Assembly: GCA_023700925.1 (NCBI GenBank)
Contig: JAMPXZ010000003.1
Location: 1 to 42,066 of the forward strand
Length of the DNA stretch: 42,066 bases
From: Oligoflexia bacterium
GTDB lineage: Bacteria; Bdellovibrionota; UBA1018
Direction of reading: 5' to 3'
The notes below the pieces were generated by a model that saw only the letters and a list, made by a program, of their open reading frames with translations, did no database searches and was not told the DNA's origin. A program made the position numbers and the translations under genes. The stretch's first letter is position 1. Every line of letters begins with the position of its first letter. Shown here piece by piece: positions 4,591-41,944 of the stretch.

Positions 4591-5424
4591 TTAGCCCAGC
4601 AGCTTGAGAGTCGCCTGATTGGTCGAGTTGGCCTGGCTCAGCACCGAGATACCCGCCTGCATCAGGATGTTGTTCTTGGTCATCTCCGAGACCTCGTTGG
4701 CGAAGTCAGCGTCGCGGATGCGGCTGTTCGCGGCCGAAAGGTTCTCGTCGCTGATCGAGAGGTTGTTCACCGTCGACTGGAGCCGGTTCTGCATGGCGCC
4801 CAGATCGGCGCGGATGCTGTTGACCCGGATCAGGGCGTCGTCGATAACCGAGAGGCTGAGCTGCGAGCCTTGCTTGGTGGCCACGCTTTCGCCGCCGAGC
4901 TTGAGGGCGTCGAGCGTCGCATCCGACCTTTCGCCGTTGTAGACGACGCGGTCGAGGATCGGATTGTTCTGGATGCCGACCTGGATCTCGAAGATCCCGG
5001 CCTTGCCGTTCAAGAGAGGGGTCCCGTTGAACGCGGTCACGTTCGCGATCCGGTCGATTTCCTGCTTGAGCGACTGGAACTCACGGTCCGTGAACTGGCG
5101 TTCGGTGTCCCCGATCGTGTCCGACGCGGCCTGGATCGCCAGCTCGCGCAGGCGGACCAGGATGTTTGAAATCTCATTCAGGCCACCTTCGGAAACCTGG
5201 ATCAGCGACATGCCGTCCGAGGCGTTCCGTTTCGCCTGTCTGATCCCGCGGACCGAAGCCCGAAGGTTCTCGGAAATCGCCAAGCCCGCGGCGTCGTCGC
5301 CCGCGTGATTGATCCGGCTGCCGCTGGCGAGTTTTTCCAGCGTGCGGTCGAGATTCTCCCGAGTGTTGGTCATCTGTCTTTGCGCGTTCAGCGCAGTCGT
5401 ATTGGTCGCGATTCGCAAACCCAT
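4591..5424 (-). CDS. fliC: Flagellin (277 aa, D0/D1 only)
   Basis: MGLRIATN, LASGSRINHAGDDAAGLAIS, RADLGAMQNRL, SRIRDADFA, SVLSQAN. Confidence 0.97.
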   Translation of the reverse strand: MGLRIATNTTALNAQRQMTNTRENLDRTLEKLASGSRINHAGDDAAGLAISENLRASVRGIRQAKRNASDGMSLIQVSEGGLNEISNILVRLRELAIQAASDTIGDTERQFTDREFQSLKQEIDRIANVTAFNGTPLLNGKAGIFEIQVGIQNNPILDRVVYNGERSDATLDALKLGGESVATKQGSQLSLSVIDDALIRVNSIRADLGAMQNRLQSTVNNLSISDENLSAANSRIRDADFANEVSEMTKNNILMQAGISVLSQANSTNQATLKLLG

Positions 5425-5587: not shown

Positions 5588-6421
5588 TCAGCCCAGCAGC
5601 TTCAACGCCGCCGAGTTCGTGTTGTTCGCCTGGCTCAGGACCGAGATACCGGCCTGCATCAGGATGTTGTTCTTGGTCATCTCCGAGACCTCCTCGGCCA
5701 TATCCGTATCCCGGATGCGGCTGTTCGCGGAGGAGAGGTTCTCGTCGCTGATCGAGAGGTTGTTCACCGTCGACTGGAGCCGGTTCTGCATGGCGCCCAG
5801 ATCGGCGCGGATGCTGTTGACCCGGATCAGGCCGTCGTCGATCACCGAAAGGCTGAGCTGTGAGCCTTGCTTGGTGGCCACGCTTTCGCCGCCGAGCTTG
5901 AGGGCGTCGAGCGTCGCATCCGACCTTTCGCCGTTGTAGACCACGCGGTCGAGGATCGGATTGTTCTGGATGCCGACCTGGATCTCGAAGACTCCCGCTT
6001 TGCCGTTCAGGAGCGGGATGCCGTTGAACTGGGTGACGTTGGCGATCCGGTCGACTTCCTGCTTCAGCGACTGGAACTCGCGGTCAGCGAACTGTCGCTC
6101 GGTATCCCCGATCGTGTCCGATGCGGCCTGGATGGCCAGCTCGCGGAGTCGGATGAGGATGTTCGAAATCTCGTTCAGGCCGCCTTCGGAAACCTGGATC
6201 AGGGAGACCCCGTCCATCGCGTTGCGCTTGGCTTGCCTGATGCCGCGCACGGAAGCCCGAAGGTTCTCGGAGATCGCCAGTCCCGCGGCGTCGTCGCCCG
6301 CGTGATTGATCCGGCTGCCGCTGGCAAGACGTTCCAACGTCTTGTCGAGATTCTGCCGGGTCTGGGTCATCTGTCTTTGCGCGTTGAGCGCGGTGGTATT
6401 GGTTGCAATTCGCAAACCCAT
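5588..6421 (-). CDS. fliC: Flagellin (277 aa), close paralogue of 4591-5424
   Basis: Same flagellin terminal motifs; aligns without gaps to copy 1 at an offset of 997 bp. Confidence 0.97.
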   Translation of the reverse strand: MGLRIATNTTALNAQRQMTQTRQNLDKTLERLASGSRINHAGDDAAGLAISENLRASVRGIRQAKRNAMDGVSLIQVSEGGLNEISNILIRLRELAIQAASDTIGDTERQFADREFQSLKQEVDRIANVTQFNGIPLLNGKAGVFEIQVGIQNNPILDRVVYNGERSDATLDALKLGGESVATKQGSQLSLSVIDDGLIRVNSIRADLGAMQNRLQSTVNNLSISDENLSSANSRIRDTDMAEEVSEMTKNNILMQAGISVLSQANNTNSAALKLLG

Positions 6422-6900: not shown

Positions 6901-7749
6901 TCAACCTGCTCCTTGCCCCAGGAGACCCAGGGCGGCTTTGATCGTACTGTTCGCCTGGCTGAGTACCGACACGCCAGACTGCATCAGGATCTGATTCTTC
7001 GTCAGCTCGGTGGTCTCCTCGGCGATGTCCGCGTCGCGGATGCGGCTGTTGGCGGACGCGAGGTTCTCACGGCTGATCATGATGTTGTTGATCACGGACT
7101 GAAGCCGGTTCTGCATGGCGCCGAACTCGGCTCTCACGGCGGTCACCGAGCCCAGGGCCGTATCGATCGAGGCCAGCGAGTTCTGCGCGCTGAGCTTGTC
7201 GCCGACGCTCGAAAGGTTCAGTCCCAGCGCCACCACGTTGAGGTCGGCCGAGCTCGAGTCGAAGAGGCGGATGCGGTCGACGATCGGGTTGTTGCGGGTC
7301 CCGACCTGGATCTCGAAGGCGCTCGCCTTGCCGTTGAGCAGGGGAACCCGGTTGAATTCGGTGCTTTGCGCGATCCGGTCGATCTCCTCGATCAGCTGCT
7401 GGAACTCGACGTTCATGAACTGGCGTTCCTGCGGACCGACCGTGTCGGAGGCCGCCTGCACGCCCAGCTCGCGCATCCGGATGAGGATGTTGGAAATCTC
7501 GCCCATCGCGCTCTCGGCGACCTGGACGAGCGAGACGCCGTCCTGCGCGTTGCGCTCGGCCTGGCCGAGGCCGCGGATCTGGGAGCGAAGGCTTTCGGAG
7601 ATCGCCAATCCCGCGGCGTCGTCGCCGGCATGGTTGATCCGCGATCCCGAGCTCAATCTTTCGAGGGTTCTGTCGAGGGAGGAACGGGTGCCTCGCAAGT
7701 TTCGTTGCGCGACAAGGGAGGGTACGTTCGTATTGATCCGCAGTCCCAT
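6901..7749 (-). CDS. fliC: Flagellin (282 aa), more divergent paralogue
   Basis: MGLRINTN start at 7749 after GGAGGAAGG, LSSGSRINHAGDDAAGLAIS, SRIRDADIA. Confidence 0.96.
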   Translation of the reverse strand: MGLRINTNVPSLVAQRNLRGTRSSLDRTLERLSSGSRINHAGDDAAGLAISESLRSQIRGLGQAERNAQDGVSLVQVAESAMGEISNILIRMRELGVQAASDTVGPQERQFMNVEFQQLIEEIDRIAQSTEFNRVPLLNGKASAFEIQVGTRNNPIVDRIRLFDSSSADLNVVALGLNLSSVGDKLSAQNSLASIDTALGSVTAVRAEFGAMQNRLQSVINNIMISRENLASANSRIRDADIAEETTELTKNQILMQSGVSVLSQANSTIKAALGLLGQGAG

Positions 7750-7869
7750 ACCTTCCTCCATGAAGGTGTTATGGCCAATCCTAGGCCGTATGGGGAACAG
7801 TGCCGTTTTCGGTCCGCTTCCCGGTTCACCTTCTTGGTGATCTGGGTTGCTTCACTGCTTCCAAGTAAC

Positions 7870-7896
7870 GTTTCGGCCGCGCGGAAAATACCTTGA
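7870..7896 (-). promoter_or_regulatory. sigma28 (FliA) promoter of the flagellin cluster
   Basis: TCAA-N15-GCCGAAAC versus consensus TAAA-N15-GCCGATAA, about 120 nt upstream of the first-transcribed flagellin. Confidence 0.7.
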
Positions 7897-7908
7897 GAGT
7901 TTTTTTCG

Positions 7909-7960
7909 AAAAAAATAGCGCCCCGGAACAGCCCCCCTGTTCAGGGGGCGCTCCGGGGCG
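7909..7960 (-). terminator. Rho-independent terminator after the 7994-8287 gene
   Basis: CGCCCCGGA..GCCCCCTG..CAGGGGGGC..TCCGGGGCG stem followed by CTATTTTTTT on the minus strand. Confidence 0.7.
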
Positions 7961-7993
7961 AAACTGAGCGAATTTTCGCTGGATTATGGCTTC

Positions 7994-8287
7994 TTAGGCA
8001 GCCTCAGCGTAATCCTCCGCATGCCAGTGGTCATAAAGGGTCTTGTTTTTCTCGTCGCGCAGCCATTTGGCCGCATGATCCGGCGGCTCCTGGCCAAGGC
8101 ACTTGTGGGAGAAGGCATGGACGGTCATCGTCTCGCCGGCGACCGACACCTTGTACTCGCCGTTGGGCTGCTTGGCGATCTTGCAGGTCTTGTTCGGATC
8201 GCTTACGAAATAGAGCGTTTGGCCATCCTTCAGGTATCCTTCATGAACCAGCGCGGTCAGATCGAATTTGCTCTTCTTTTTGGACAC
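7994..8287 (-). CDS. Small protein resembling the RAMA (modified-DNA reader) / TDBD fold
   Basis: GGAGG SD with GTG start. Pattern L..L...G.L..GQ.L.F, G..K....G....VHAFS..C, W.....KTL is reminiscent of RAMA domains (by eye only). Confidence 0.6.
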   Translation of the reverse strand: MSKKKSKFDLTALVHEGYLKDGQTLYFVSDPNKTCKIAKQPNGEYKVSVAGETMTVHAFSHKCLGQEPPDHAAKWLRDEKNKTLYDHWHAEDYAEAA

Positions 8288-8323
8288 TCGGTTCCTCCTT
8301 CTTTGGGTTGATTGCCACTACTG

Positions 8324-8350
8324 ATATCGGCAAAATTTGCCGGGAATTAT
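8324..8350 (-). promoter_or_regulatory. Possible sigma28 promoter of the small RAMA-like gene
   Basis: Near-consensus -10 GCCGATAT; weak -35 (ATAA at N15); 36 nt from the GTG. Confidence 0.45.
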
Positions 8351-8375
8351 ATGCCGGGCGCGTCGAAACCGCCCG

Positions 8376-9248
8376 TCAGGCCGCCCGCTTGTCGCCTTCG
8401 CCCGGCGCGTCGACGGTTTCGGTGGCCTTGGGTTCCTCGAGCGCATTGGTGCTCGTTTCGTTCCAGAGAATTTCCAGGGAAGTCGAGAAACGGTTGACCA
8501 GGTTGTAATAGACGCCATCCGCCGAGAGCACCGTGTTGACGAGGCTCATGCAAACCGAGAGCGCGATCCCGACGATCGACTTGATCATGGCGAGCGAGAT
8601 CTTGACCAGGAAGAGGTCCATGACCTTCTTGCTTTCCTCGATGTTGCCGAGGTCCATGCCGCCGAGGTCGGGCAGGCCCTTGGAGATCCCGAGGAACGTG
8701 CCGAAGATGCCGCCGATAATGAAAAGGCTCGGCAGGATGTTGATCAGCTCGTTGAGCGGCCCGACCGGGAAGATCCCGATCACCTTGTTGAAGACGGGGT
8801 TGTTGTCGAAGCTGGATTTCGCGATGTCGAGCATGCGGGGCGGGAAGCCCTCGCGCTTGAGGTAGCGAATCTGGCGAAGGGTGTCGCGTACCGTGAAGGC
8901 GGCGCCGTCCTGGATCAGGAAAACGCGATCGGTCACCGACGCGACGGCATCGAAGTTACGCCGCTTGAACTTGGCGCGCATCTCGAAGGACTCGTAATAG
9001 GTCTTCTCGAGTAGCGCCTTCGTCATCAGGAAGAAGGACTCGAGGCGCTTGGAGTCCGGACTCCAGAAGAACTTGCGGACCCGCTTCTCGAACTCGAAGC
9101 AGAACTTCAGCTCCGCCTTTGCCGTATAGTAGATGAGAGCCCGGAACAGCACCCCGACGAAGAAGGTCGCGATCATCACCGGCATCAGGATGCCGGCGAT
9201 CCGGTCGATCAGGGTGTTCATGATAAAATGGCTGATAGGGTCTAGCAT
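8376..9248 (-). CDS. MotA/TolQ/ExbB/ZorA-like ion-channel subunit (3 TM)
   Basis: One N-terminal TM, a cytoplasmic region, then LPSLFIIGGIFGTFLGISKGL and KISLAMIKSIVGIALSV. The P..G..GT..G signature is characteristic of the family. Confidence 0.8.
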   Translation of the reverse strand: MLDPISHFIMNTLIDRIAGILMPVMIATFFVGVLFRALIYYTAKAELKFCFEFEKRVRKFFWSPDSKRLESFFLMTKALLEKTYYESFEMRAKFKRRNFDAVASVTDRVFLIQDGAAFTVRDTLRQIRYLKREGFPPRMLDIAKSSFDNNPVFNKVIGIFPVGPLNELINILPSLFIIGGIFGTFLGISKGLPDLGGMDLGNIEESKKVMDLFLVKISLAMIKSIVGIALSVCMSLVNTVLSADGVYYNLVNRFSTSLEILWNETSTNALEEPKATETVDAPGEGDKRAA

Positions 9249-9256
9249 GCTTGCTC

Positions 9257-10963
9257 CTATTCATCCCGCAGATTGAATTTGATGATGACGCGTTGGCCTT
9301 TTTTGCAGTCAAAGACCTTGCAATAGTTGCCGTCCCGCACCTGCGCCAGCTCGCGGCCCTTCAGGCGTTCGGTGGCCAGGTAGCTGCGGCCTGAGACCTT
9401 CACGAGCGGCAACAGGTCCTTCTGGTGCTGGAAGCTCATCTTCTTGGTGTCGAAGACGTGCTCGAAGATGGACTTGGCGCGCTGGTAGCTCAGATCCATG
9501 TTGAAGTTGACGGCGGCGCGGTCCGCGGGCGAGAGGCTGTCGGGATCGATGTATTTGTTCTGATAGGTGGGCGAGGCGAAGCCCACGATCTCCACCGAGC
9601 CGATCCGTCCGCTGATTTTCTGGTCCTGGAACAGGCTGTTGGCGTAGATCGGGATCATCCTCTCGAGCGTCGAGCGCATCCCCGTCTTGAGATCCGCGCG
9701 TCCCGTCTCGAAGTACTCGTTGGCGAAGTTGATGGTGACGTCCCCGGTCTTGATATCGACGTCCGCCTCGATCCCTGCCTTGGCGAAGTTGCGCTTGATG
9801 CCCTCGGCGAGGCGGCGCTGCTCGTTCAGCTTGTTCTGACTGGCGACCAGATTCCGCTGGAGGGTGTCGTTGGCCATCTTGAGGGAGTTGAGCGAGTTGT
9901 GGTACTGCCCCTCCATTGACCGGATATTGCCGCGGGTCTTCTCGAGCTCGCCGTTGAGGTTGGCGAGCTGGTCGTTGTATTCCTTGTTGCGCCGCTCGAC
10001 GTCGGCGCGATAGGCGCGCTCCTGGGCCAGCCTCGCTTCGGCGCTGAGCTGGGCCTTGGCGATGCCTTTTTCGAACGCCCCCTTCTCGCGGGCCATGGTT
10101 TCCTCATGCGCGCGCTTGAGCTCCGCGAGAGTGTCGCGATACTTGCCTTCCTTCTGGTTCAGCTCGCCGAGCAGGCGCTCGGTCTCGCGATTCTTCTGCT
10201 CGATCTCGCCCTGCGCCGTCTGGAGCTGGTTGGCGTAACGCGAGTTCTCCGAACGCAAGCCCTGGATCTGGCCCTCGCTCTCCTGACGGAGCTGGGAGAT
10301 GGCCTCCTGGAGCTTTTGCTCCGAATGTTGCTTGCTCTTGTAGACGCGTTTCACCTCGTCGATCTTCGTCGAGAGCTGCGACTCGATCTGCGCGATCGTC
10401 TGGTTGTTGCGCTCGATCTCGCCCTGTTTCTGGGCGATGCTGGCGTTGAGGGTGCCGAGTTCGCGTTCTTTGACCGCGATTTCGGCCTGTTTTTCCTCGA
10501 TCACGACGTCGCGCTTCTTCACGCGCGCCTGAGCGACGAGGTTCGCGCTGATGATATTCTTGACCAGCGCCTGATACTGGTTGAGGTCGCGCTCCTTCTG
10601 TGCCGCGTCCCGCGCTTGGCGCGAAAGATCCTTGCTCTTCTGCTTCGCCTCGTCCTCGAGCAGGTTCAGCTTGCCCATCAGCTCCTGATAGACCTGCACC
10701 TCATCCTCGGTCGCGCCTTCCTGAAGGTAACCGTCCCGAACGGCCTCGTAGGCCTGGATCTGCTTGCGAAGCGCGTCCGCCTCGACTTTGGCGTTCTTCA
10801 TCGCCGTGTGGGAAACGATCATCTGGGCGCCGCTTCGAAGATTCGCGATCACGTACAAGAGGAGGAAGACCACCGACAGCACCAGGAACAGGTCGCTGTA
10901 GGAGGTCCAATGGTTGCCCCCGTGCTCCACCTTGGCTCTGATTTTTTCGTAGTTAAGGTTCAA
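9257..10963 (-). CDS. MotB/ZorB-like protein: TM with conserved Asp, long coiled coil, C-terminal OmpA-like domain
   Basis: HWTSYSDLFLVLSVVFLLLYV; heptad-rich E/K/Q/L region; YFETGRADL, EIVGFAS, NMDLSYQRAKSI, VSGRSY, QRVIIKF. Likely TTG start at 10963 after GGAGA (the ORF track starts at 11044). Confidence 0.82.
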   Translation of the reverse strand: MNLNYEKIRAKVEHGGNHWTSYSDLFLVLSVVFLLLYVIANLRSGAQMIVSHTAMKNAKVEADALRKQIQAYEAVRDGYLQEGATEDEVQVYQELMGKLNLLEDEAKQKSKDLSRQARDAAQKERDLNQYQALVKNIISANLVAQARVKKRDVVIEEKQAEIAVKERELGTLNASIAQKQGEIERNNQTIAQIESQLSTKIDEVKRVYKSKQHSEQKLQEAISQLRQESEGQIQGLRSENSRYANQLQTAQGEIEQKNRETERLLGELNQKEGKYRDTLAELKRAHEETMAREKGAFEKGIAKAQLSAEARLAQERAYRADVERRNKEYNDQLANLNGELEKTRGNIRSMEGQYHNSLNSLKMANDTLQRNLVASQNKLNEQRRLAEGIKRNFAKAGIEADVDIKTGDVTINFANEYFETGRADLKTGMRSTLERMIPIYANSLFQDQKISGRIGSVEIVGFASPTYQNKYIDPDSLSPADRAAVNFNMDLSYQRAKSIFEHVFDTKKMSFQHQKDLLPLVKVSGRSYLATERLKGRELAQVRDGNYCKVFDCKKGQRVIIKFNLRDE

Positions 10964-10989
10964 GGCCGGTTCTCCGTGTCTCTCTGGCG

Positions 10990-11017
10990 GTATCGTCGGG
11001 TTTCGGGATCGGCTTGA
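10990..11017 (-). promoter_or_regulatory. Possible sigma28 promoter of the MotB/MotA-like operon
   Basis: TCAA-N16-GACGATAC, 26 nt upstream of the proposed TTG start; spacing is one base longer than consensus. Confidence 0.35.
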
Positions 11018-11085
11018 ATCTTTTTGGAAAAAGACATGACTCAATATGTCATTAAAGACCCGCGGCAGTTCAGCCGAAATAGGGA

Positions 11086-13167
11086 GTGATGAAATATCGA
11101 ATAAAGATCCGCGTGATCAAAGAGGGGATGCAACCGCAAAAGTTCTCCATGAACTTGGAGGAGGGCGCCACCTTCACGGTCGGTGACTCCGTGCCGGGCA
11201 TCCAGGGCGAAGTCTGCGTCTTCCGCGTGAGTGACGGATCACTACTGGTGACCAAAGCCGAAAAAGGCTCTGACATCGTCGTGAACGGCATCGAAGGACG
11301 CGAGTTCCGGGTCAAGGTCGGAGACCAGCTCAAGAGCGCGACGACCGCGGTCGAGTTTCTCGATGTTCCGTGGCGCCAGGAAACGCCGGCGGAAACCCAG
11401 TTCATCGACGTCGCCAAGGCGGGCTTGCTGCCGCAGAAGGCGGCGGCTGAGCATCCAGCCGCGCCGGTCGTGGAGAGCGCTGAGGCGCTTGTGCCCGCGG
11501 CGCCTGCGGTGCCCGAGGCGCCCGTGGTGCCCGTGGCCGCCGCGAGCGAAGCGCCGAGCGAAGTGGTGCTGACTCCCCCGGAGACGCCCGTGGCGGTGGA
11601 GCTCGATATTCCGGAAGCGCGGAGAGCCGAAATCCCCGCGCACCGTGGGCGCGAGCGGGGATGGGAAGCCACCGATAGCGGCGTGCCGCGCGATAAAAGT
11701 TGGAGCGATCTCGGAGTTCAGGGCCATTCCTCGATGACCGAGAGCACCCGGCTCTTCCTGAAGAAAACGGAAGATGCCGAGATGGCCCGCAAGGAGCTGT
11801 TCAGTCTCTGCGGTCTCATGTTCCTGGCGCTCGGAGTCGCCGGAGGGGCCGCGCAGATGGGCTCCCCGCTGCTCTGGGGTTCGGCAGGGGTGATGTTCGG
11901 CCTGCTCTTCTCGGCGATCCTGCCGAGGCTGGCGGGGTTTACCGGAAGCACGGCGAGCTTCAGCGCTTACCTCCGCTTCATGACTTACTTCTATTTCGCG
12001 TTGATCCCGTGGGGGTTCGCGTTCCGCCTGCATCCGATTGCCGCGATCGTGGCGTCGGTCTTCGCCTGCGCGGGTTTCACGGCGGCCTTCATGATCCGGT
12101 TCAAGATCAGTTTCGGTCGCTTTTCGGCGGTAGGTGGCGCGGTCTCGCTGTTACCCATCGCGCTCGCGGCAGTCTCCTTGACCGACGGGTTCACGAATCT
12201 GCCGTTCCAGTGGAAAGGCGACGTCGCCCAGGGCTCTTCGTCCGAGGAGCTGGCCGCGCGGCAGCCGGCCTCCGAGTCGGGCGCGGTCGTGCTCGATCCC
12301 GCGGCTCCGGCGCAGGTGCAACCTCAAGCGCAGGCCCCGGCTCCCGTGCAGCCGCAGGCTCAACCGCTGGTTCCGGCGCAAGCTCCGGTCGCTGCCCAGG
12401 CGCCTATCACGGCTGAAGCTCCGGCTCCGCTGAACGCTCAAGCCTCTGTCGCGCCTCCGGTCCAGGCGCCGCTCCAGCCCCAGGGCCAGCTCCTGGCGCA
12501 ACCGGCGTTTCCGCCTCCGGCGCAGCCCGTGGCCCAGGCCCCGGTCCCTGTCCAGCAGGTTCAGGCACCGGCGTATTACGAGCAGACCGCGCGCCGGGGG
12601 GGTGAGGACGTAGGGGATCCCCTGGCCACCGAGCAGTTCTTCAGTGCCGCCAAGAAGGGTAATGTCAGCGTCGTCAAGGCGCTCATCGCAAAGAAGGCGG
12701 TCGATCCGAATTTCACCCTCGACAAGGGCAATACCGTGCTGATGTATGCTGCCGCCAATGGCCATACCCGGCTGGTGAAGTACCTGCTCTCTCAAAGGGT
12801 CAACGTCAATGCCCGCGACCCCAACGGCACCACCGCGCTGATGTGGGCGGTTTACAAGGGCCACACGGAGGTCGTGAACATCCTGCTGAAATCCCGCGCG
12901 GATACTTTCATCCGCCGCGACGACGGTGACCGCGCCATCGATATCGCCAAACGGTGGAAGCGATGGGACATCGCGGACCTTCTCGAAGGAAAGCCGCTGC
13001 GGACGATTGCCAGCAAACCTGCTTCGAGCAAGAAGGCGCCGAGCAAGAGCGGCTACCGGAAGCCCTCGTCCACAAGCAAGGGCGCTGGCAAGACCGCTGG
13101 CAAGACCGTCACAAAGCCGAGATCCGGTGACCGCAAGCACCGCGAAACCTACCGGGCAATTCGCTGA
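11086..13167 (+). CDS. Multi-domain membrane protein: FHA-like N-terminus, ~5 TM, P/Q/A linker, ankyrin repeats, basic tail
   Basis: IVVNG..VKVGDQL..VEF beta pattern; hydrophobic block; AAKKGN, GNTVLMYAAANGH, GTTALMWAVYKGH, GDRAIDIA ankyrin repeats. Confidence 0.8.
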   Translation: MMKYRIKIRVIKEGMQPQKFSMNLEEGATFTVGDSVPGIQGEVCVFRVSDGSLLVTKAEKGSDIVVNGIEGREFRVKVGDQLKSATTAVEFLDVPWRQETPAETQFIDVAKAGLLPQKAAAEHPAAPVVESAEALVPAAPAVPEAPVVPVAAASEAPSEVVLTPPETPVAVELDIPEARRAEIPAHRGRERGWEATDSGVPRDKSWSDLGVQGHSSMTESTRLFLKKTEDAEMARKELFSLCGLMFLALGVAGGAAQMGSPLLWGSAGVMFGLLFSAILPRLAGFTGSTASFSAYLRFMTYFYFALIPWGFAFRLHPIAAIVASVFACAGFTAAFMIRFKISFGRFSAVGGAVSLLPIALAAVSLTDGFTNLPFQWKGDVAQGSSSEELAARQPASESGAVVLDPAAPAQVQPQAQAPAPVQPQAQPLVPAQAPVAAQAPITAEAPAPLNAQASVAPPVQAPLQPQGQLLAQPAFPPPAQPVAQAPVPVQQVQAPAYYEQTARRGGEDVGDPLATEQFFSAAKKGNVSVVKALIAKKAVDPNFTLDKGNTVLMYAAANGHTRLVKYLLSQRVNVNARDPNGTTALMWAVYKGHTEVVNILLKSRADTFIRRDDGDRAIDIAKRWKRWDIADLLEGKPLRTIASKPASSKKAPSKSGYRKPSSTSKGAGKTAGKTVTKPRSGDRKHRETYRAIR

Positions 13168-13189
13168 GGGTTCTGCTACTCTTTGAGGG

Positions 13190-14104
13190 ATGGATTCCCT
13201 CCACTTCGAGCCGATCAGCGGCAAAGAGGCGCACGCCGAGTTCGTCGCATTGCTGAACTCGTGTTTTCCCGTGCCCCGAGGGCATTCTTTTCTCGAGGAC
13301 TTTCCGGTCTGGGGAGTGCTGGAGCCGGATACGCATTTCTACATCGGGGGCTACTCGAGCGGGCGACTCGTCGCGGCTGCCGCGGCGCGGACGGCCGAGC
13401 TGATTACCGAAGGTGCACCGTTGCCGATCGGTTTGATCGGTGCCGTGGCGACGCATTCCAGCTGCCGGGGACGCGGCTTCGCCTCCCAGGCGACCGCTCA
13501 GGTGCTCGATTGGCTCGCGCGCAGGCGGGTCGCGCTCGCCGTGCTTTGGGGCTCCGAACATGAGCTCTATCGCCGGATGGGGTTTGAACTTTGCGGAATT
13601 CAGACGACGCTCCCCCTGTGGCAGCTGCAGCTGCCGTCGGATGCGCCGCGTCCCGGACGGGGCTGGGTTCCGGGACTGTGGGAGCGCTTGAAGCGCCGCG
13701 GCTCGGGACTGCAGTACGGCGAAAAAGACCGTTCCTGGTTGGAAGCTCATGCCAATGTCCAGTGGTACTGGCTTGGGGAGCCCTCGAAGCCCACGGCCTA
13801 TGCGGCGTTAGGCCGTGGAATTGACCTCGGAGGCCTGGTTCACGAGTGGGGAGGGGATCCCGAGGCGCTTCGCAGCCTGCTTAGCGCGGTGAGGGCGGAG
13901 GTCCCCGGGGCCGCCTTATTGGGGTCGCCCCGCTTGTTTGAGAAATTCCGTCTGGTCTGCTCTCCGGGGACGCCCGTCCCTGAGGAGCAGTTTCTCTGCA
14001 TGGCCCGCTTCATGGCTCTTTCCGAAGACCCCGAACGGGTTTATAGCTTGCTCGGTGAGAAGGGCGCCTCGCCTCTGTGGTTTTGGGGTCTCGACGGGGC
14101 CTGA
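13190..14104 (+). CDS. GNAT family N-acetyltransferase (Eis-like N-terminal domain)
   Basis: IGAVATHSSCRGRGFAS acetyl-CoA motif and LYRRMGF. Confidence 0.85.
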   Translation: MDSLHFEPISGKEAHAEFVALLNSCFPVPRGHSFLEDFPVWGVLEPDTHFYIGGYSSGRLVAAAAARTAELITEGAPLPIGLIGAVATHSSCRGRGFASQATAQVLDWLARRRVALAVLWGSEHELYRRMGFELCGIQTTLPLWQLQLPSDAPRPGRGWVPGLWERLKRRGSGLQYGEKDRSWLEAHANVQWYWLGEPSKPTAYAALGRGIDLGGLVHEWGGDPEALRSLLSAVRAEVPGAALLGSPRLFEKFRLVCSPGTPVPEEQFLCMARFMALSEDPERVYSLLGEKGASPLWFWGLDGA

Positions 14105-14154
14105 AATTTCTCTCTTTCAGTGCTCCGAATGACGATAGGCTAAGAGAAGGCCAC

Positions 14155-14976
14155 GTGAAAAGCTATACGTCCAAATTCCTCAAGTCAGTCGCGGTTTTCT
14201 ACCTCGGGTTTCCCGTGTTCTACATCTTCTTGTGCGCGCTGCTCTTCGATGTTCCCGCGAAGAATTGCCTCGGCATTCTCCTGGCGCCCGGCTTTTACAT
14301 CCTGTCGATCTTCGCGATCATCGTGGGATATGCCCTGTGGGAGATGCGCCGCTGGGCCTGGTACGGCTTCATCGTGGCGAACATCCTGATCGCCTACGAG
14401 AATGCCGTGGTCGTGAACGAGTTTGGCGAGACCCACCACAAGGCCCTGGCCTTTGTCGCTTCGGTGCTCCTGCTTTTGCTGGTGAGCCTGCGCGTGAGCA
14501 AGGAGATCCGGGTCCCCTATTTTTTTCCGAAGATCCGCTGGTGGGAAAGCAATCCGCGCTACCGCCTCGCCGCCCCCGCGAAGCTGGTGCGCAAGGACGG
14601 CGTGACCATCGAGGGCCAGATCCTCGATCTGTCGAATACCGGTTGTTTCATCAAGCTGCGGGGTGAGCTCCCGCAGGACGAGGTGGTCGGCCTGTCGTTC
14701 TCGATATTCGGCTGCTCGGTGGACTGCCAGGGCGTGGTCGTGTGGCAGACCCAGAGCACGGTGACCAACCCGAAGGGAATCGGCGTGAAGTTTCTCCCGC
14801 TTTTCAGGCCGCAGCGGCGCGCGCTCCGGCAGATCGTCGAACGCCTGCGCAAGATCGCCCGCCTTTACCGCCGTTCACGTTACCTGCTCAATCAGGACGA
14901 GTTCATGCGGCGGCTGCAGGAGATCGAAACCAAGGGCGCGGTGAAACGCACCCGCATGGGCCTCAAGATCGTATGA
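14155..14976 (+). CDS. 4-TM membrane protein with C-terminal PilZ domain
   Basis: Four hydrophobic segments, then NPRYRL, ILDLSNTGCFI, GVVVW, GIGVKF. GTG start at 14155 after GAGAAGG. Confidence 0.82.
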   Translation: MKSYTSKFLKSVAVFYLGFPVFYIFLCALLFDVPAKNCLGILLAPGFYILSIFAIIVGYALWEMRRWAWYGFIVANILIAYENAVVVNEFGETHHKALAFVASVLLLLLVSLRVSKEIRVPYFFPKIRWWESNPRYRLAAPAKLVRKDGVTIEGQILDLSNTGCFIKLRGELPQDEVVGLSFSIFGCSVDCQGVVVWQTQSTVTNPKGIGVKFLPLFRPQRRALRQIVERLRKIARLYRRSRYLLNQDEFMRRLQEIETKGAVKRTRMGLKIV

Positions 14977-16016: not shown

Positions 16017-17396
16017 TCAACCGACGACCGAAACGTCCGTCAGCAGGGCGAAATCCGGGCCGTAGTACCCATCGCCCGTGGGGGCATCCGAAGAGAAGTG
16101 CGCGCGCTTGACCGGGCGGTTCGAAAGCCGCGCTCCGCGGAAGTTCTCGCGGAACGAGCCCGAGAGCGATCCGCCCTTGAGGTAGGTCACGCTTTTTTTC
16201 TCATTGTCGAACAGGCGCGCCAGGCGAATCTCGCTGCTGAAGGTGCCGCTGTTGGCGTCGACGAAAAGCCCGGAGAACTGCAGGATTTCGAGCACCTTCG
16301 GTGCCCGGCGGGTCAGCTCCTCGTAGCTCAGGGTTCCGGGGTCGACGACAATGCTGCCGCGAACCGTGGTGGGAACCGCGGAAAGGTAGTCGGCAAAGCG
16401 CTTGTCCGTGGCGGTGGCCACCACGCGGTTGCGATCCACGAGCTTGAACGGAGTCTGAATGAGGCCGTGCTCGGAGAGGGCCGCCGTGTCGGCGCCGTAG
16501 GGCAGCGAAGGATCCAGGGTGATGGTCAGCGGATCGCCCGAGGCGTTCGGCACGAGCTCGTCGCCCGGCTTCACGAAGGGCAGGCCGTGATAGGCGTTCA
16601 TCGAGGAGAGCTGGGTGAGCTGGCTCGAGAACAGCGCGGCCAGGACATCGGCATCCACGATCACGGGGTAGCGTCCCGTCTCGGGCTTGCGCACGTCCAG
16701 GGAGTGCTCGGCGCGGTCAGAGGTCTCATCAAAGAGCTCCTCGACCGGCAGATCGTCGAGGCTCACCGCCCAGCGCGTGTTGAGGTATTCATCTGAATGC
16801 GGCTTGCCGTCCGCGCCCGGGCGCGTGAACGAGTACGCCGCTTCGGAGTAGATCCGGCTCTGCGAGGAGCGGTGGACGAGGCCGTTGCTCAGGTGCAGCT
16901 CGTGGTCATGGATGGACAGGAAGAGCTCGGCGGAGCTGAAGGTCGTCGGACGCCGGCGCGCCACGGCGGCGCCCATCCGGCGGGTGAGCCCCGTCATCAC
17001 CCCCTCGAGATCCTCGGCCATCCGGGCATCGGCGGTCAAGACCTCGGGCAGCTCCTTGGGAATCGCGCCCGGCAGGCTCCAGGCCTGGTGATCGGTCTGG
17101 CGAGCCGCCGCGATCGCGGAGTCGAGCTGTGGCGTGAGCGGGAGCGCGGGAAAGAGCTTCTTGGAAATCTCGCCCTGGCGTCCCGCCTTCGGAAGCCCGA
17201 CGAAGATCTTCGCGCTGATGCTCTGCGATCGGACCTCGCGGTCCTGGTCGGTGATCAGGGCGCCGCCGTCGAGCATGAAGTAACGCTCGCGCCGGTGGAT
17301 ATGCTCCTGCGTGATGATCCAGCCCTTGACCTCCTTGCGGCGGTTGAGCTCGTTCTTGAGGGTGTCGAGGGTCCAGTTCTGCGTCGTGCGTTTCAT
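16017..17396 (-). CDS. TldE/PmbA-like partner of TldD
   Basis: G.YPVI, TITLDP..P.G, TTVRG, SGTFS motifs; no HExxxH; 11 bp downstream of tldD. Start taken as MKRTTQ. Confidence 0.8.
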   Translation of the reverse strand: MKRTTQNWTLDTLKNELNRRKEVKGWIITQEHIHRRERYFMLDGGALITDQDREVRSQSISAKIFVGLPKAGRQGEISKKLFPALPLTPQLDSAIAAARQTDHQAWSLPGAIPKELPEVLTADARMAEDLEGVMTGLTRRMGAAVARRRPTTFSSAELFLSIHDHELHLSNGLVHRSSQSRIYSEAAYSFTRPGADGKPHSDEYLNTRWAVSLDDLPVEELFDETSDRAEHSLDVRKPETGRYPVIVDADVLAALFSSQLTQLSSMNAYHGLPFVKPGDELVPNASGDPLTITLDPSLPYGADTAALSEHGLIQTPFKLVDRNRVVATATDKRFADYLSAVPTTVRGSIVVDPGTLSYEELTRRAPKVLEILQFSGLFVDANSGTFSSEIRLARLFDNEKKSVTYLKGGSLSGSFRENFRGARLSNRPVKRAHFSSDAPTGDGYYGPDFALLTDVSVVG

Positions 17397-17407
17397 CGTG
17401 TGCCTCG

Positions 17408-18988
17408 TTATCCGAGAATGACCTGATCCAGGAGCAGGTAGGGGCCGCCGCAACCGGCGAAGACGAACTCCTTGTGATACTTGCCGCAGCCCCCGGCGTC
17501 GTTGAACGGATGGCGTGAGCGATCCGGCGCGGAGGTCGTGGCGTCGATCTTGGATTTGGCGACGATCGAGTTCAGCACGTCGGGAGTATAGCCGGTGAGC
17601 TGGATATCGCCACCGGCGGGGCCTTTGAAGAGCCGCCCGGTCAGCTTGCCGTCCTTCACTTCTTCGAGAAAGGAGATCCCCACCTGAATCCCCATGCCTT
17701 TGGGGTCTTCCATCCCGCCGGCGGGATGCAGGGCGATGAAGCCGTTCTTCATGCGCGAGAGGAGCTGGTCGAGCGTCTGATCGCCCGGGCTGAAGTAGGT
17801 GTTCGTCTGCCGGGTATAGACGCCGCTTGCCCAGTTCTCACGCTTGCCGTTGGCGGTTCTCGGAACGCCGAGGCGAAGCGAAGACGTAAGGTTCGTCATC
17901 GGAGGGGTCAGGGCGCCGCGGTCGAGCAGCACCTGCTCCTGCGCGAGCCACCCTTCCTCGTCAAAGAAATAGCTGCCCCACGCGGCGTAGGGCTCGCCGG
18001 CCATCTCGTAGATCGCCGGATTATTCAGGATCGTCGCCTGTTCGTTGCCCACCCGTTCACCGGATTTGTGAAGCTCCCACGCTTTGCTCCGGCCGCGGGC
18101 GCAGGTATCGCCCTCCTGGGAGTGGCCGAACGCCTCGTGCGCGAGCACGCCGGTGAGCACGGGTCCGAAGATGACCGGATATTTTCCCGGTGCGAGCCTT
18201 TCGGCTTTCTTGAGGCCCTTGAGGTTCACCAGGAGCGTGCGCAGCTCCTCGGGTTTCACCTCGAGCGTCTCCAGCCCGCCGAGGCCGCCGAGCCTCAGGA
18301 AGGTACGGTCCGATCCCGACATCGTGATCAGGGTGAGCGCGACCCGATAGAGTGCCTGGGACATGTCCGTTTCGCGATCGATGAAGATCGACTGCTCATC
18401 CGAGAAGGACTCGCGCGCGGTAATGAAGGTCAGCTCTTCTTGGGGGAAACCCGCCTCGGCGGCAGTGGCCTTGATGCGGGCGATCAGCTCGTTGAGGCGC
18501 GCGAGCGTCTCGGCGGCGGTGGCGGCTTTCGGATATCTTTGAAAGCGGATTCCGAAATGCACCGGCGTCTCCGCGCTCGTTCCGTTCGGGATCTGAAGGA
18601 GCAGTTCGGGATCGAGCTTCGCGGAGGCGACGCGTTCGCTCCAGCTCACGGCCCGGTAGGGACGCTTGCGCGCGCCCTCGGGGGGGCGGGTGGCCGCGAC
18701 TCGCTCGGCAAAGGACTGGGCGAAAGATCTGAGCGAGGCGGGTTCGAGCTCGTCGGTCGCCTGTTCGAAGAGCGTGTAACCGTCATAAATCCGCAGGACC
18801 GCGCCCTGGCTCACCTGGTCGCTGACCTGGGTCTGCTTGAGGTTGGCCGAGTAGGTCTTGCTCGACTTGCGCTCGAAGTAGATCGATCCGTACCAGTCCG
18901 GTCCGTTTTCGAGGAGCGGGAGGAGCTGCTTGAGCGACTGGCGGAGGTCCCGGAGATCTGCGGAAAAAGGAGCTCTTTTGATTTCCAT
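17408..18988 (-). CDS. tldD: TldD-family metalloprotease
   Basis: LAHEAFGHSQEGD zinc motif, GSYFFDEEG, TANGKRE, RQTNTY, GGCGK, GCGGP. Confidence 0.88.
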   Translation of the reverse strand: MEIKRAPFSADLRDLRQSLKQLLPLLENGPDWYGSIYFERKSSKTYSANLKQTQVSDQVSQGAVLRIYDGYTLFEQATDELEPASLRSFAQSFAERVAATRPPEGARKRPYRAVSWSERVASAKLDPELLLQIPNGTSAETPVHFGIRFQRYPKAATAAETLARLNELIARIKATAAEAGFPQEELTFITARESFSDEQSIFIDRETDMSQALYRVALTLITMSGSDRTFLRLGGLGGLETLEVKPEELRTLLVNLKGLKKAERLAPGKYPVIFGPVLTGVLAHEAFGHSQEGDTCARGRSKAWELHKSGERVGNEQATILNNPAIYEMAGEPYAAWGSYFFDEEGWLAQEQVLLDRGALTPPMTNLTSSLRLGVPRTANGKRENWASGVYTRQTNTYFSPGDQTLDQLLSRMKNGFIALHPAGGMEDPKGMGIQVGISFLEEVKDGKLTGRLFKGPAGGDIQLTGYTPDVLNSIVAKSKIDATTSAPDRSRHPFNDAGGCGKYHKEFVFAGCGGPYLLLDQVILG

Positions 18989-19095
18989 TCCCACCTCTTA
19001 ACCGAACTTCCGCAAAACCGCAAAGGCCCTGGGCCAGCGCGCTCACTCCTGTCTTGAAGGTGTGCGCGGCGCGGTGCTTGTGCTAGTCTTTCGTC

Positions 19096-40256: not shown

Positions 40257-40871
40257 GTGAGCCGCAAAAGACAAGAACATCAACTCACGCTTCCCGGACT
40301 GACAAAACGAACGCGTATCCTCGCGCACGGGGGCGACCTCACTCAGGGCAAGCGCAAAACGGCGCGCCCCTTTGACCGCAAGCAGGCGCTTCACGTGGTG
40401 CTGCGCTCGAGCAAGGCCCGCGGCGAGCGCTCATTGCTGCATCCCCGGCACTGCAATCACGTCCGCGCGCTCACTGAGCGGCTTGCGAAACGCTGGGGAA
40501 TCGCGGTGTATCGCTACGCGAACGTGGGGAATCACCTGCACCTGCTTGTCCGCGCGCGGTCCCGCGCCGCCTGGCAGGGCTTTATCCGTGAGCTCTCCGG
40601 CGGAATCGCGATGCTCGTGACGGGCGCACGCAAAGGCCAGGGGCTGCCGCGTGAAAAGGCGGAGCTGCCGCGCGGGTTCTGGGATCATCTGGTTTTCAGC
40701 CGAATCGTGTCGTACGGTCGCGATTTCGCGGGCGTCGCCAGGTATGTTTGCACGAACCTTTGGGAAGGCGCGGGGGTTCCGGTGAGAAAATACCTCGCGC
40801 GTGGGTACCGGGTTCTGGAGATCTCGGAAGATGGAGCGTTTCTGCTTGAGCAGCGCGCGGGGCCGGCTTAG
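40257..40871 (+). CDS. RAYT-like HUH (Y1) transposase
   Basis: HVVLRS, NVGNHLHLLV (HUH), FW...FSRIV, RYV..N (catalytic Tyr). Confidence 0.85.
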   Translation: MSRKRQEHQLTLPGLTKRTRILAHGGDLTQGKRKTARPFDRKQALHVVLRSSKARGERSLLHPRHCNHVRALTERLAKRWGIAVYRYANVGNHLHLLVRARSRAAWQGFIRELSGGIAMLVTGARKGQGLPREKAELPRGFWDHLVFSRIVSYGRDFAGVARYVCTNLWEGAGVPVRKYLARGYRVLEISEDGAFLLEQRAGPA

Positions 40872-41944
40872 CCGTCACTTTTCATTGGCTGCAAAGGAGC
40901 GGGGACGGAGATACGGGGTGCCGCAGCGGGTGGTGTCTTGGCAGGAACGGCTGAAGAGGAGGCCGCGGCGACGGGCGCAGGAGCGGCCGGGATAGAAGCC
41001 GTTGGCGGGGCTTGAGTCGCGACTGTGGAAGCAGGCGCGGTAGCGGCGGCGGCAGTCTCAGTAGTGGCGGCGGGAGCAGTAGGCGTAGCAGCACCGCTGG
41101 CGGCAGCCGTAGCAGAACCTGCGGCAGGCGGACTAGCACTAAGCGGACTAGCACCACCAGCCTCAGCGGCAGGCGCGCGGTGCGCGGCGTTGTCGGGGAA
41201 GGGGATGAAATCCACTTGCGGCTCCAGGATGCGGATGACGACGCGGCGGTTCTGGGCGAGGGCGTACTCGTCGAGCGTGCCGGCGGGCGTGCGATTCTGG
41301 ACGAGGGGACGCGTGTCACCGTAGCCGATCGCGGTGAGGCGGTCGGAGTGGAAGTTCTTGGCGAGGAACATTCGCACCACCCGCGCCGCGCGGGCGCCGG
41401 AGAGCTCCCAGTTTGAGGGGAAGGTGCCACCGAGGATGGGTCGACTGTCGGTGTGGCCTTCGACGACGATGCGGTACGCCTTCTTCTCGGCGGTCTGGCG
41501 GCTGAAGATCGAATCGATCAGGCGCTCGAGGACCACGCGCCCCTGGGGCCGGACGTCAGCGCTCAGGGTGTCGAAGAAGACTGTCGATTGAAATGCGACG
41601 GTGACGCCGAGGGCGTCCGAGAGCACGGTGGCTTCCTTGTCGATGCCGTTCTCGTTGAGCACGGCGGTGAGGAACTTGCCGAGCTCGGTCGTCGCGGGAC
41701 CGTTGTACTCGATGCCGAAGGACTTGGCCATCGCCTCCTTGACCTTCTCGAACTTGTTGTCGTCGAGCTTGGCCATGCTGAAGAGCATGATGAAAAAGCC
41801 GCAAAGCAGCGTCATCATGTCAGCATAGGAGATTAGCCAGTTCCCCTCGTCATGCGCCTCGGGGCCGTGCTTGGGCTCCTCCTTGGAGCGCCGGTGCTGC
41901 TCCTCGATGCGCTTCGCTTCTTTGAGGAACTTCCTTACGGACAT
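40868..41944 (-). CDS. motB: Flagellar stator protein MotB with Ala/Pro/Thr tail
   Basis: WLISYADMMTLL, VEGHTDS, FPSNWELSGARAARV, IGYGDTRP, NRRVVI. Confidence 0.93.
   Translation of the reverse strand: MSVRKFLKEAKRIEEQHRRSKEEPKHGPEAHDEGNWLISYADMMTLLCGFFIMLFSMAKLDDNKFEKVKEAMAKSFGIEYNGPATTELGKFLTAVLNENGIDKEATVLSDALGVTVAFQSTVFFDTLSADVRPQGRVVLERLIDSIFSRQTAEKKAYRIVVEGHTDSRPILGGTFPSNWELSGARAARVVRMFLAKNFHSDRLTAIGYGDTRPLVQNRTPAGTLDEYALAQNRRVVIRILEPQVDFIPFPDNAAHRAPAAEAGGASPLSASPPAAGSATAAASGAATPTAPAATTETAAAATAPASTVATQAPPTASIPAAPAPVAAASSSAVPAKTPPAAAPRISVPAPLQPMKSDG

Follow-up and report, generated by a model that had tools for sequence, protein, structure and literature searches.

Do two adjoining membrane-protein genes of an Oligoflexia bacterium encode an ion-driven motor of an undescribed kind? 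Five functional families of 5:2 ion-driven motors are recognised, namely flagellar stators, Ton, Tol, gliding/type 9 secretion and Zorya, and each of them has revealed a new way of turning membrane potential into work or signal. The stretch of DNA analysed here (the window) is one entire contig of 42,066 nucleotides (JAMPXZ010000003.1) from a metagenome-assembled genome of 3.35 Mb in 262 contigs (GCA_023700925.1, 88.6% complete), and a preliminary description of it had singled out a ZorB/ZorA-like pair in reversed order, here called B and A, as a candidate for such a motor. With moderate confidence, we read A/B as the core of a ZorAB-type ion-driven motor that acts as an envelope-to-cytoplasm transducer together with a cytoplasm-facing signalling partner. 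Literature searches covering Bdellovibrio, Zorya, ZorB, FHA/OmpA proteins and reviews of 5:2 motors returned no description of the A/B family, in agreement with the proposal that the system is undescribed. A 2025 survey of MotAB relatives (PMC12505986) excluded ZorAB from its trees and has the B gene downstream of A in its data.

Both A and B are real genes, because searches of a 5.8-billion-protein collection returned 400 homologues of A and 558 of B at E ≤ 1e-3. The longest open reading frame (ORF) containing B spans 9257..11044, and alignment with 31 homologues placed its start at the TTG at 10963, with GGAGAA just before it and a product that begins MNLNYEK...; the stop codon lies at 9257-9259. 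B is the upstream and A the downstream gene on the minus strand, separated by 8 bp (9249-9256). Gene order, gap, coordinates and motifs were thus as first described, and B preceded A by a few bases in all 33 loci inspected, comprising 21 of 21 loci (20 plus the window), 8 of 8 further ones and 4 of 4 loci of a paralogous module.

B is predicted to comprise a short cytoplasmic N-terminus, one transmembrane (TM) helix, an all-helical periplasmic region of ~350 residues and a C-terminal OmpA/ZorB-like domain. Its sole strongly hydrophobic stretch covers residues 24-50 (overlapping windows 24-42 and 32-50), and the WTSYSDLF motif occupies residues 19-26, of which W19, Y22 and D24 were invariant in all 32 aligned sequences. 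Within the C-terminal domain, N488, L491, S492, R495, A496 and I499 were likewise invariant (32/32), a pattern that we take to be the OmpA-type motif N-x-x-L-S-x-x-R-A-x-x-V/I. Among PADLOC models, B matched ZorB1 (1.6e-23) and ZorB2 (1.8e-15), and a B family profile compared with PDB sequences retrieved ZorB (8vvi_A, 3.3e-7; 8qyd_F, 2.3e-5). An AlphaFold2 (AF2) model of B, built from a 32-row alignment with a mean predicted local distance difference test score (pLDDT) of 70 and a predicted template modelling score (pTM) of 0.38, is helical between residues 18 and 395, apart from breaks at 83-85, 211-214 and 304-307, and ends in an alpha/beta domain at 409-565. ZorB chains were its top Foldseek matches in the PDB (8vvn_B, 9.6e-7; 8vvi; 8qyd_F, 4.6e-5), and below them stood the cell-wall-binding domains of PA0833, OmpA, MotB and MotS (E 1e-6 to 1e-3 for ZorB and these domains taken together). 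Scores against curated families were low: NCBIfam ZorB2 gave 28.6 bits against a cut-off of 400 and Pfam MotB_plug 14.5 bits (E 0.026) against a cut-off of 24, while the Pfam OmpA model (PF00691) gave no match to the B of the window at E ≤ 1, matched one close homologue in precomputed annotation and matched a paralogue at 7.4e-6. By fold and motif together, the C-terminus of B qualifies as a predicted OmpA-like cell-wall-binding domain. The only two cysteines of B (548 and 553) sit in this domain and form a probable periplasmic disulfide pair; disulfides are also described for the cell-wall-binding domain of ZorB in a Zorya study (PMC11946911). The same source places the Asp26 of ZorB in a WISYADL stretch, with which D24 of B aligns.

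A has three hydrophobic helices (residues 17-35, 168-186 and 219-237) and a cytoplasmic domain of ~130 residues between TM1 and TM2. The ExbB/ZorA topology, with the N-terminus outside and both the loop and the C-terminus inside, fits the Lys/Arg-rich TM1-TM2 loop, which has 25 such residues among 132 (residues 36-167). Residues 173-187 read PSLFIIGGIFGTFLG and hold the GGIFGTFLG motif of TM2; P173, G180, I181, G183, T184, F185 and G187 were invariant in 32/32 sequences. Only ~50 residues follow TM3, the last 17 of them disordered in the model and ending in ...KRAA, so that the earlier statement of three TM helices and no long tail held. Profile matches to A comprised PADLOC ZorA1 (1.1e-5) and NCBIfam ZorA_2 (9.9e-6; 24.8 bits against a cut-off of 100), both across TM2-TM3 only and with no other models than ZorA listed by either resource, and Pfam MotA_ExbB (PF01618) at E 0.015, with 15.5 bits against a cut-off of 22.9. 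From the PDB, the family profile retrieved ZorA (8qyh_A, 3.1e-5); ExbB, TolQ and MotA were not among its matches at E ≤ 10. Precomputed matches to PF28082, named ZorA-like_t1 in Pfam 38.1 (Atlas), were present on 34 of the 120 A homologues listed. In Foldseek, the AF2 model of A (pLDDT 83.7, pTM 0.72) matched four ZorA entries best (E 2.7e-3 to 4.7e-3, ~270 columns), followed by TolQ and ExbB, and VIA-align returned Z-scores that amount to a tie (ZorA 11.8 with a root-mean-square deviation of 4.0 over 206 residues, ExbB 11.2, TolQ 10.9). On combined profile and model evidence, we accept A as a predicted member of the MotA/TolQ/ExbB superfamily, though no single curated threshold was passed.

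The extreme C-terminus of A (8376-8400) showed a pattern of its own. Among the 120 homologues listed, 74 end in AA and 107 in [A/V][A/S/G], on a disordered linker that varies from 4 to 174 residues after a WNET motif. An AA ending is rare elsewhere, with 57 cases in the 2439 long ORFs of the source genome and 0/7 among its canonical MotA/ExbB paralogues. The conserved dipeptide may serve for docking or as a signal for degradation; as part of a ...K-A-A end on a flexible linker, it could dock an adaptor.

Taken by profile and predicted fold, ZorA and ZorB are the nearest known relatives of A and B, and PADLOC, NCBIfam, PDB profiles and Foldseek all supported the initial assignment to a ZorB/ZorA-like, stator-type pair. 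The PDB tables show five ZorA chains per entry and eight ZorB chains in four entries; the Zorya motor is given as ZorA5B2 with Asp26 in PMC11946911.

What, then, does the long helical region of B do? The preliminary description had credited B with WTSYSDLF, ~350 residues of coiled coil and an OmpA-like domain. The motif, the ~350 helical residues and the domain stood, but the coiled coil only in part, as a clear 3.5-residue heptad periodicity was confined to about residues 153-275 and 307-375, and the conserved stretch 45-150 had none. Its figure of ~50 nm for a straight stalk is an upper bound (350 helical residues × 0.15 nm = ~52 nm) and not a finding, given the three helix breaks, the low pTM of the model and the variable length. 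Total length ranged from 468 to 766 residues among B homologues (median 576; 110 full-length proteins among 120 listed) and from 653 to 991 in the paralogous B proteins (4 loci), which makes it unlikely that the stalk is a perpendicular spacer matched to a fixed periplasm width. For E. coli, the distance from inner membrane to wall is quoted as ~9 nm in PMC11946911. The stalk may instead be folded or bundled with others, run parallel to the membrane, or serve as a long leash or torsion element. Large insertions near residues 150, 250 and 350 did not co-occur in the same sequences, as paired insertions in a folded hairpin would, and this speaks neither for nor against folding.

A bolder proposal, which takes up the idea of action at a distance in the preliminary description, is that the stalk forms a straight ~50 nm rod through and beyond the predator's own envelope, so that the motor acts on prey at a distance. 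A helical region of this length with no proline at all (none across residues 45-437) and the confinement of the family to a predator-rich phylum would suit such a rod, which we nevertheless regard as very improbable. Its tip is a cell-wall-binding domain with a probable disulfide pair, and nothing suggests passage through the outer membrane; the model breaks the helix three times, heptads cover only ~190 of the 350 residues, and length is not conserved. The family also occurs in records labelled Oligoflexia and Silvanigrellaceae, which are not known as obligate predators.

The locus had been described as a two-gene operon. B and A do lie 8 bp apart, but a third component had been missed, which is an FHA-containing membrane protein (gene C) in most relatives and probably the adjoining FHA-like/ankyrin membrane protein (ANK) in the window's lineage. 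In 15 of 21 loci, gene C is the next same-strand gene after A, and in a sixteenth (G214) its frame is interrupted by one in-frame stop. It encodes 650-1270 residues, with an FHA domain at the N-terminus (Pfam 1e-9 to 1e-17 for all four proteins tested) and a long coiled coil behind it. Close to the C-terminus there is a single TM helix, and after it comes a conserved domain of ~200 residues. A profile of this domain matched 120 of the 401 phylum genomes, mostly directly beside A. In the source genome, the search for gene C returned only unrelated FHA matches (contigs C76 and C105), none with the C-terminal profile, and gene C was also absent from a genome of the same genus (94% complete); it is therefore likely to be absent from the source genome, itself 88.6% complete.

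In its place stands ANK, divergent from B, with an N-terminal FHA-like domain of ~110 residues, four hydrophobic helices (residues 238-366), a Pro/Ala/Gln-rich linker, ankyrin repeats at 516-625 (Pfam ankyrin families, 1e-22) and a basic tail. It has no predicted periplasmic domain, and with four TM helices both its ends probably face the same side. The N-terminal domain aligned with the FHA domains of gene C in hhalign (probability 80.8%, E 1.3e-5, 75 columns), gave no match to Pfam FHA (PF00498) at E ≤ 1, and was placed near FHA-domain clusters by a language-model search (Atlas; 0.86), a result to be read as a lead only. ANK has no phospho-threonine-binding motif, and it does not retain the G-R...S-R-x-H pattern that is nearly invariant among the FHA domains of gene C. 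An ANK homologue lies directly upstream of B in 9/9 C-less loci of the window's taxonomic family. Across the 401 genomes searched, strong matches to the N-terminal domain (E ≤ 1e-22) occurred in exactly the 10 genomes of this family that carry a C-less pair, with one weaker match next to the pair in a genome from a different family. ANK is thus the probable third component of the module in the window's lineage.

A paralogous module in four genomes of another family (L053-L056) has a partner of yet another kind. Its B-like proteins (653-991 aa) carry the WTSYSDL helix and an OmpA domain, and its A-like protein of ~305 aa is followed in 4/4 loci by a gene of ~155 aa whose product matched the cyclic-nucleotide (cNMP)-binding family PF00027 (1e-18 to 1e-22 in 3/3 tested, the fourth being near-identical to one of them). 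This module accounts for the weak matches of the phylum survey (E 1e-31 to 1e-41).

A motor pair with a third membrane protein also recalls Tol/Ton and Agl/Glt systems, and A/B could be an energiser of mechanical envelope work, such as outer-membrane tethering in division or prey entry or the movement of a periplasmic or surface structure, with the B stalk or the third protein as force transducer like TolA, TonB, GltG or GldM. The structural tie of A between TolQ/ExbB (Z 10.9-11.2) and ZorA (11.8) is compatible with this, as are the FHA/TM/periplasmic-domain layout of gene C, the N-terminus of which matched GltG at 2.3e-9 (far below the model's 650-bit cut-off), and the retention of the family in 45 of 53 genomes of the B. 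bacteriovorus family, as a housekeeping machine would be kept. However, no conserved outer-membrane or surface component lies beside the operon in 21 clustered loci, ANK offers no predicted periplasmic domain as transducer, the tip of the stalk is an anchor in the cell wall rather than a cargo-binding end, and the length of B as a whole varies widely. We therefore rate an energiser of this type as unlikely, though less so than the other alternatives.

At the sequence level, the A/B family is small and isolated: an A profile run against 1.84 billion representative proteins found 400 at E ≤ 1e-3 and 125 at E ≤ 1e-30. Annotations of the homologues include 'hypothetical protein', 'myosin heavy subunit' and 'chromosome segregation ATPase'. 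The B. bacteriovorus orthologues (WP_253696905 and WP_063209059), which belong to the gene C-bearing subclade, are called 'hypothetical protein' and 'microtubule-binding protein'. In the phylum survey (401 genomes, 336 of them high-quality), an A match was present in 171 genomes (152 of the high-quality ones), of which 137 reached E ≤ 1e-60 and 34 had only weaker, paralogous matches; the expectation that homologues exist as unannotated Bdellovibrionota genes was borne out. The best 80 of 236 confirmed loci all come from genomes with Bdellovibrionota-type or vague or odd labels on metagenome-assembled genomes, among them Bacteriovoracaceae, Bdellovibrionales, Oligoflexia, Pseudobdellovibrionaceae, Halobacteriovoraceae and Silvanigrellaceae, and include cultured Bacteriovorax and Peredibacter. 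The family is restricted to Bdellovibrionota-type bacteria so far. Whether it is core or patchy, a check that had been proposed at the outset, depends on the group: it is core-like in the family that includes Bdellovibrio bacteriovorus and patchy in the window's own family, where A occurs in 21 of 57 genomes.

A maximum-likelihood tree of 45 A proteins split into two clades with support of 100/100. Clade I (14 rows) holds the window, nine members of its family, one row from a second family and three from a third, and none of these has gene C; clade II (31 rows) has gene C at all loci examined and includes seven rows of the window's family. A FastTree phylogeny of 26 B proteins, from which a length and motif filter left out three loci, gave the same two clades (support 0.999 and 0.945). 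Because the A and B trees give the same split, A and B evolve as a pair, and the window belongs to the less common, ankyrin-partnered subclade. Three clade I loci of another family (L063, L064 and L045) have a longer B (648-814 aa) and a longer A (313-447 aa, with longer tails).

By homology with known motors, five A subunits would ring a dimer of B TM helices, and protons passing Asp24 of B would turn the A ring relative to B, which would be tied to the cell wall by the OmpA-like domain at the end of its ~350-residue helical stalk. The motor would be coupled to a cytoplasm-facing signalling or scaffold partner, namely the FHA-like/4-TM/ankyrin protein in the window's lineage, the FHA/coiled-coil/TM protein in most relatives and the cNMP-binding protein in the paralogous module. 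A fixed cytoplasm-facing partner that differs between subclades suggests that the state of the motor is read or set by cytoplasmic signalling, and the module would most likely inform the cytoplasm about the condition of the envelope, meaning cell wall and periplasm, or be switched by cytoplasmic signals. It is unlikely that the pair drives a flagellum or triggers a nuclease.

Several points weigh against reading A/B as a ZorAB-type transducer. The basis is computational throughout, and no curated Pfam or NCBIfam cut-off was reached by either protein. Structural Z-scores of 11-12 for A lie in the tool's ambiguous range for helical bundles, where ZorA, ExbB and TolQ tied, and the shape of the stalk comes from a model of low global confidence. 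ANK is linked to the pair by synteny and co-occurrence in one family plus one outlier, and these genomes are kin and not independent; moreover, the three clade I loci with longer subunits showed neither ANK nor gene C in the DNA fetched. Within the window's family, distribution is patchy, with both subclades inside that one family. Loss or transfer would explain this patchiness, which is also the pattern of an accessory or defence system.

Going further, A/B might represent a distinct class of 5:2 motor, with its long element on the periplasmic B subunit and a swappable cytoplasmic adaptor. Such a motor would be confined to Bdellovibrionota and would use protons to power signalling across the membrane or mechanosensing, linking the state of the wall and periplasm to phospho-threonine or cyclic-nucleotide signalling, for example in prey contact or entry. 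We put this extension forward tentatively, as a possibility that the present data leave on the doubtful side.

The preliminary description had also considered a Zorya-related defence role, in which A/B would be a Zorya-derived anti-phage or anti-invader system with a new effector arm in place of ZorC/D/E. Kinship with ZorA and ZorB, the uneven occurrence of two subclades in one family, and weak matches between the ankyrin region of ANK and candidate models of PADLOC (PDC-M72A, 4.6e-18, to the repeats only) are what such a system would show. Yet a Pfam scan of 39 window ORFs revealed no nuclease or helicase adjoining the pair, nor was any other effector gene found in or next to the operon, and PADLOC, applied to the pair and 12 neighbouring ORFs, detected no zorC/D/E-type gene, as had been stated, and no defence genes nearby. 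The neighbours of the pair (flagellins, an acetyltransferase, a PilZ protein and tadA; Table 1) are housekeeping genes, and the same set is kept in the same-genus genome. The pair is usually single-copy and chromosomal, in the same operon across the phylum, and inside the two clades labels cluster on the A tree far more than expected by chance (14 changes, against 25.6 after shuffling; none of 200 shuffles went as low). In addition, A has no counterpart of the long cytoplasmic ZorA tail, which was needed for Zorya defence in all truncations according to PMC11946911. A role in defence is accordingly improbable.

Table 1. Positions of the A/B module and of other features in the 42,066-nucleotide window.
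Feature	Position	Strand	Size and basis
B subunit	9257..10963	-	568 aa; ORF call, start from homologue alignment, profile and fold matches
A subunit	8376..9248	-	290 aa; ORF call, profile and fold matches
ANK, divergent from B	11086..13167	+	693 aa; Pfam ankyrin, TM segments, hhalign, synteny
Divergent intergenic region B/ANK	10964..11085	.	122 bp; from gene coordinates
Flagellin genes, three in tandem	4591-5424, 5588-6421, 6901-7761	-	277, 277, 286 aa
97-aa ORF between A and flagellins	7994-8287	-	weak RAMA domain match
Membrane protein with C-terminal PilZ domain	14077-14976	+	Pfam 4.2e-15
Two adjoining TldD/PmbA-type metallopeptidase genes	16017-17453, 17408-18994	-	
IS200-type (Y1) transposase-like ORF	40257-40871	+	4.4e-5
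Canonical motB	40868-41944		Pfam
Probable motA end, cut by contig edge	41957-42064	-	last 35 codons only

The three flagellin genes lie on the same strand as A and within 620 bp of its end, and the same-genus locus is alike, which raises the idea of an accessory or alternative flagellar stator. This is the least credible of the alternatives considered. Of the 21 clustered loci, just two, those of the window and of its same-genus relative, have flagellins adjoining the pair. A is of the 3-TM ExbB/ZorA type and is without the large cytoplasmic domain by which MotA generates torque. The idea of a flagellar part is largely refuted by the presence of flagellin in 57/57 genomes of the window's family versus A in 21/57, and by a complete genome (G105) that has A, B and C but no flagellin. 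A canonical motAB had been reported at 40.9-42 kb; of this, motB was confirmed, while the probable motA is cut by the contig end. The pair is separate from this flagellar motB, as first described.

From the layout alone, the promoters of B and ANK are both presumed to lie in the intergenic region between them; a sigma-70 consensus scan of 7700-11300 found no promoter-like site, and terminator-like sites were at chance level. Among listed sequencing runs that contain 8300-13200, all were DNA runs and none was an RNA run. Other features of the window concern the surroundings of the module. The third flagellin is ~63% identical to the other two, and the whole genome holds 6 flagellin-type matches. 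The 97-aa ORF has an 84% identical copy in the same-genus genome only, a RAMA domain match below cut-off (E 0.0017) and the C-terminus ...AEAA. The PilZ membrane protein, possibly a cyclic di-GMP receptor, also occurs close to the module in the same-genus genome, and one locus of the other subclade (L033) has it too. The transposase-like ORF abuts the 3' end of the canonical motB, and the cut ORF upstream of motB also terminates in an AA dipeptide (...NKAA).

How does the module compare with the known motors? With TolQ-TolR-TolA and ExbB-ExbD-TonB it shares the 3-TM fold of A (Z 10.6-11.2) and a three-part logic of a motor pair plus a third membrane protein. It differs in that TolR and ExbD have neither an OmpA-like domain nor a long stalk and are encoded in the order A then B, and in that the third protein here is cytoplasm-facing (FHA-like, ankyrin) and does not span the periplasm as TolA and TonB do. 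The likeness to MotA-MotB and PomA-PomB lies in the TM aspartate of B, the weak plug-like match and the OmpA-like anchor, that is, in the logic of a wall-tethered ion motor; unlike MotA and PomA, A has three and not four TM helices and no torque domain, and the module is independent of flagella.

Read as a rule, the earlier statement that known systems run A then B was not quite right. In Salmonella, judging from the gene names, siiA precedes siiB, a precedent for a B-like gene in first position. These genes serve type 1 secretion of SPI-4, where SiiA is MotB-like, cell-wall-binding and proton-conducting and SiiB is MotA-like, as a preprint describes them (bioRxiv 10.1101/641415). SiiA differs from B in its 210 residues and disordered linker, as against a long helical stalk, and in serving an adhesin secretion system that is absent here. 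AglRQS with GltG/GltJ and GldL-GldM resemble the module as TolQR-type motors with an FHA-bearing membrane partner, GltG being weakly matched by gene C, and the B-type subunit GldM likewise extends far into the periplasm. They differ in that no Glt or Gld components occur nearby, B ends in a wall anchor and ANK has no periplasmic domain.

The closest comparison remains Zorya (PDB 8QYD, 8VVN, 8VVI), which gave the best profile and fold matches for both subunits. Common to both are a 3-TM A subunit with a cytoplasmic domain between TM1 and TM2, a TM aspartate of B in the same W-x-S-Y-x-D-L context, and a B subunit that ends in a Cys-containing OmpA-like cell-wall-binding domain. The gene order is reversed here, and A has 290 residues against 729 in E. 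coli ZorA, of which 223-729 form the tail; the ~350 helical residues of B (45-395) contrast with a linker-less fusion of TM helix and domain in ZorB (both ZorA and ZorB as given in PMC11946911). No zorC/D/E accompanies the pair, and the family is conserved in one phylum rather than scattered in defence islands. By its defining features the pair is not Zorya, having no ZorA tail, no linker-less ZorB, no zorC/D/E and no score that reaches a cut-off. It appears instead to be Zorya's nearest relative with the design inverted: the stalk in the periplasm is long, the cytoplasmic face is short, and the partner is encoded by a gene of its own. Kept in many predators, including the culturable and genetically tractable Bdellovibrio bacteriovorus, it may point to an unrecognised envelope machine in bacterial predation, and it gives direct access to the question of what ZorAB-type motors were for before phage defence or outside it.

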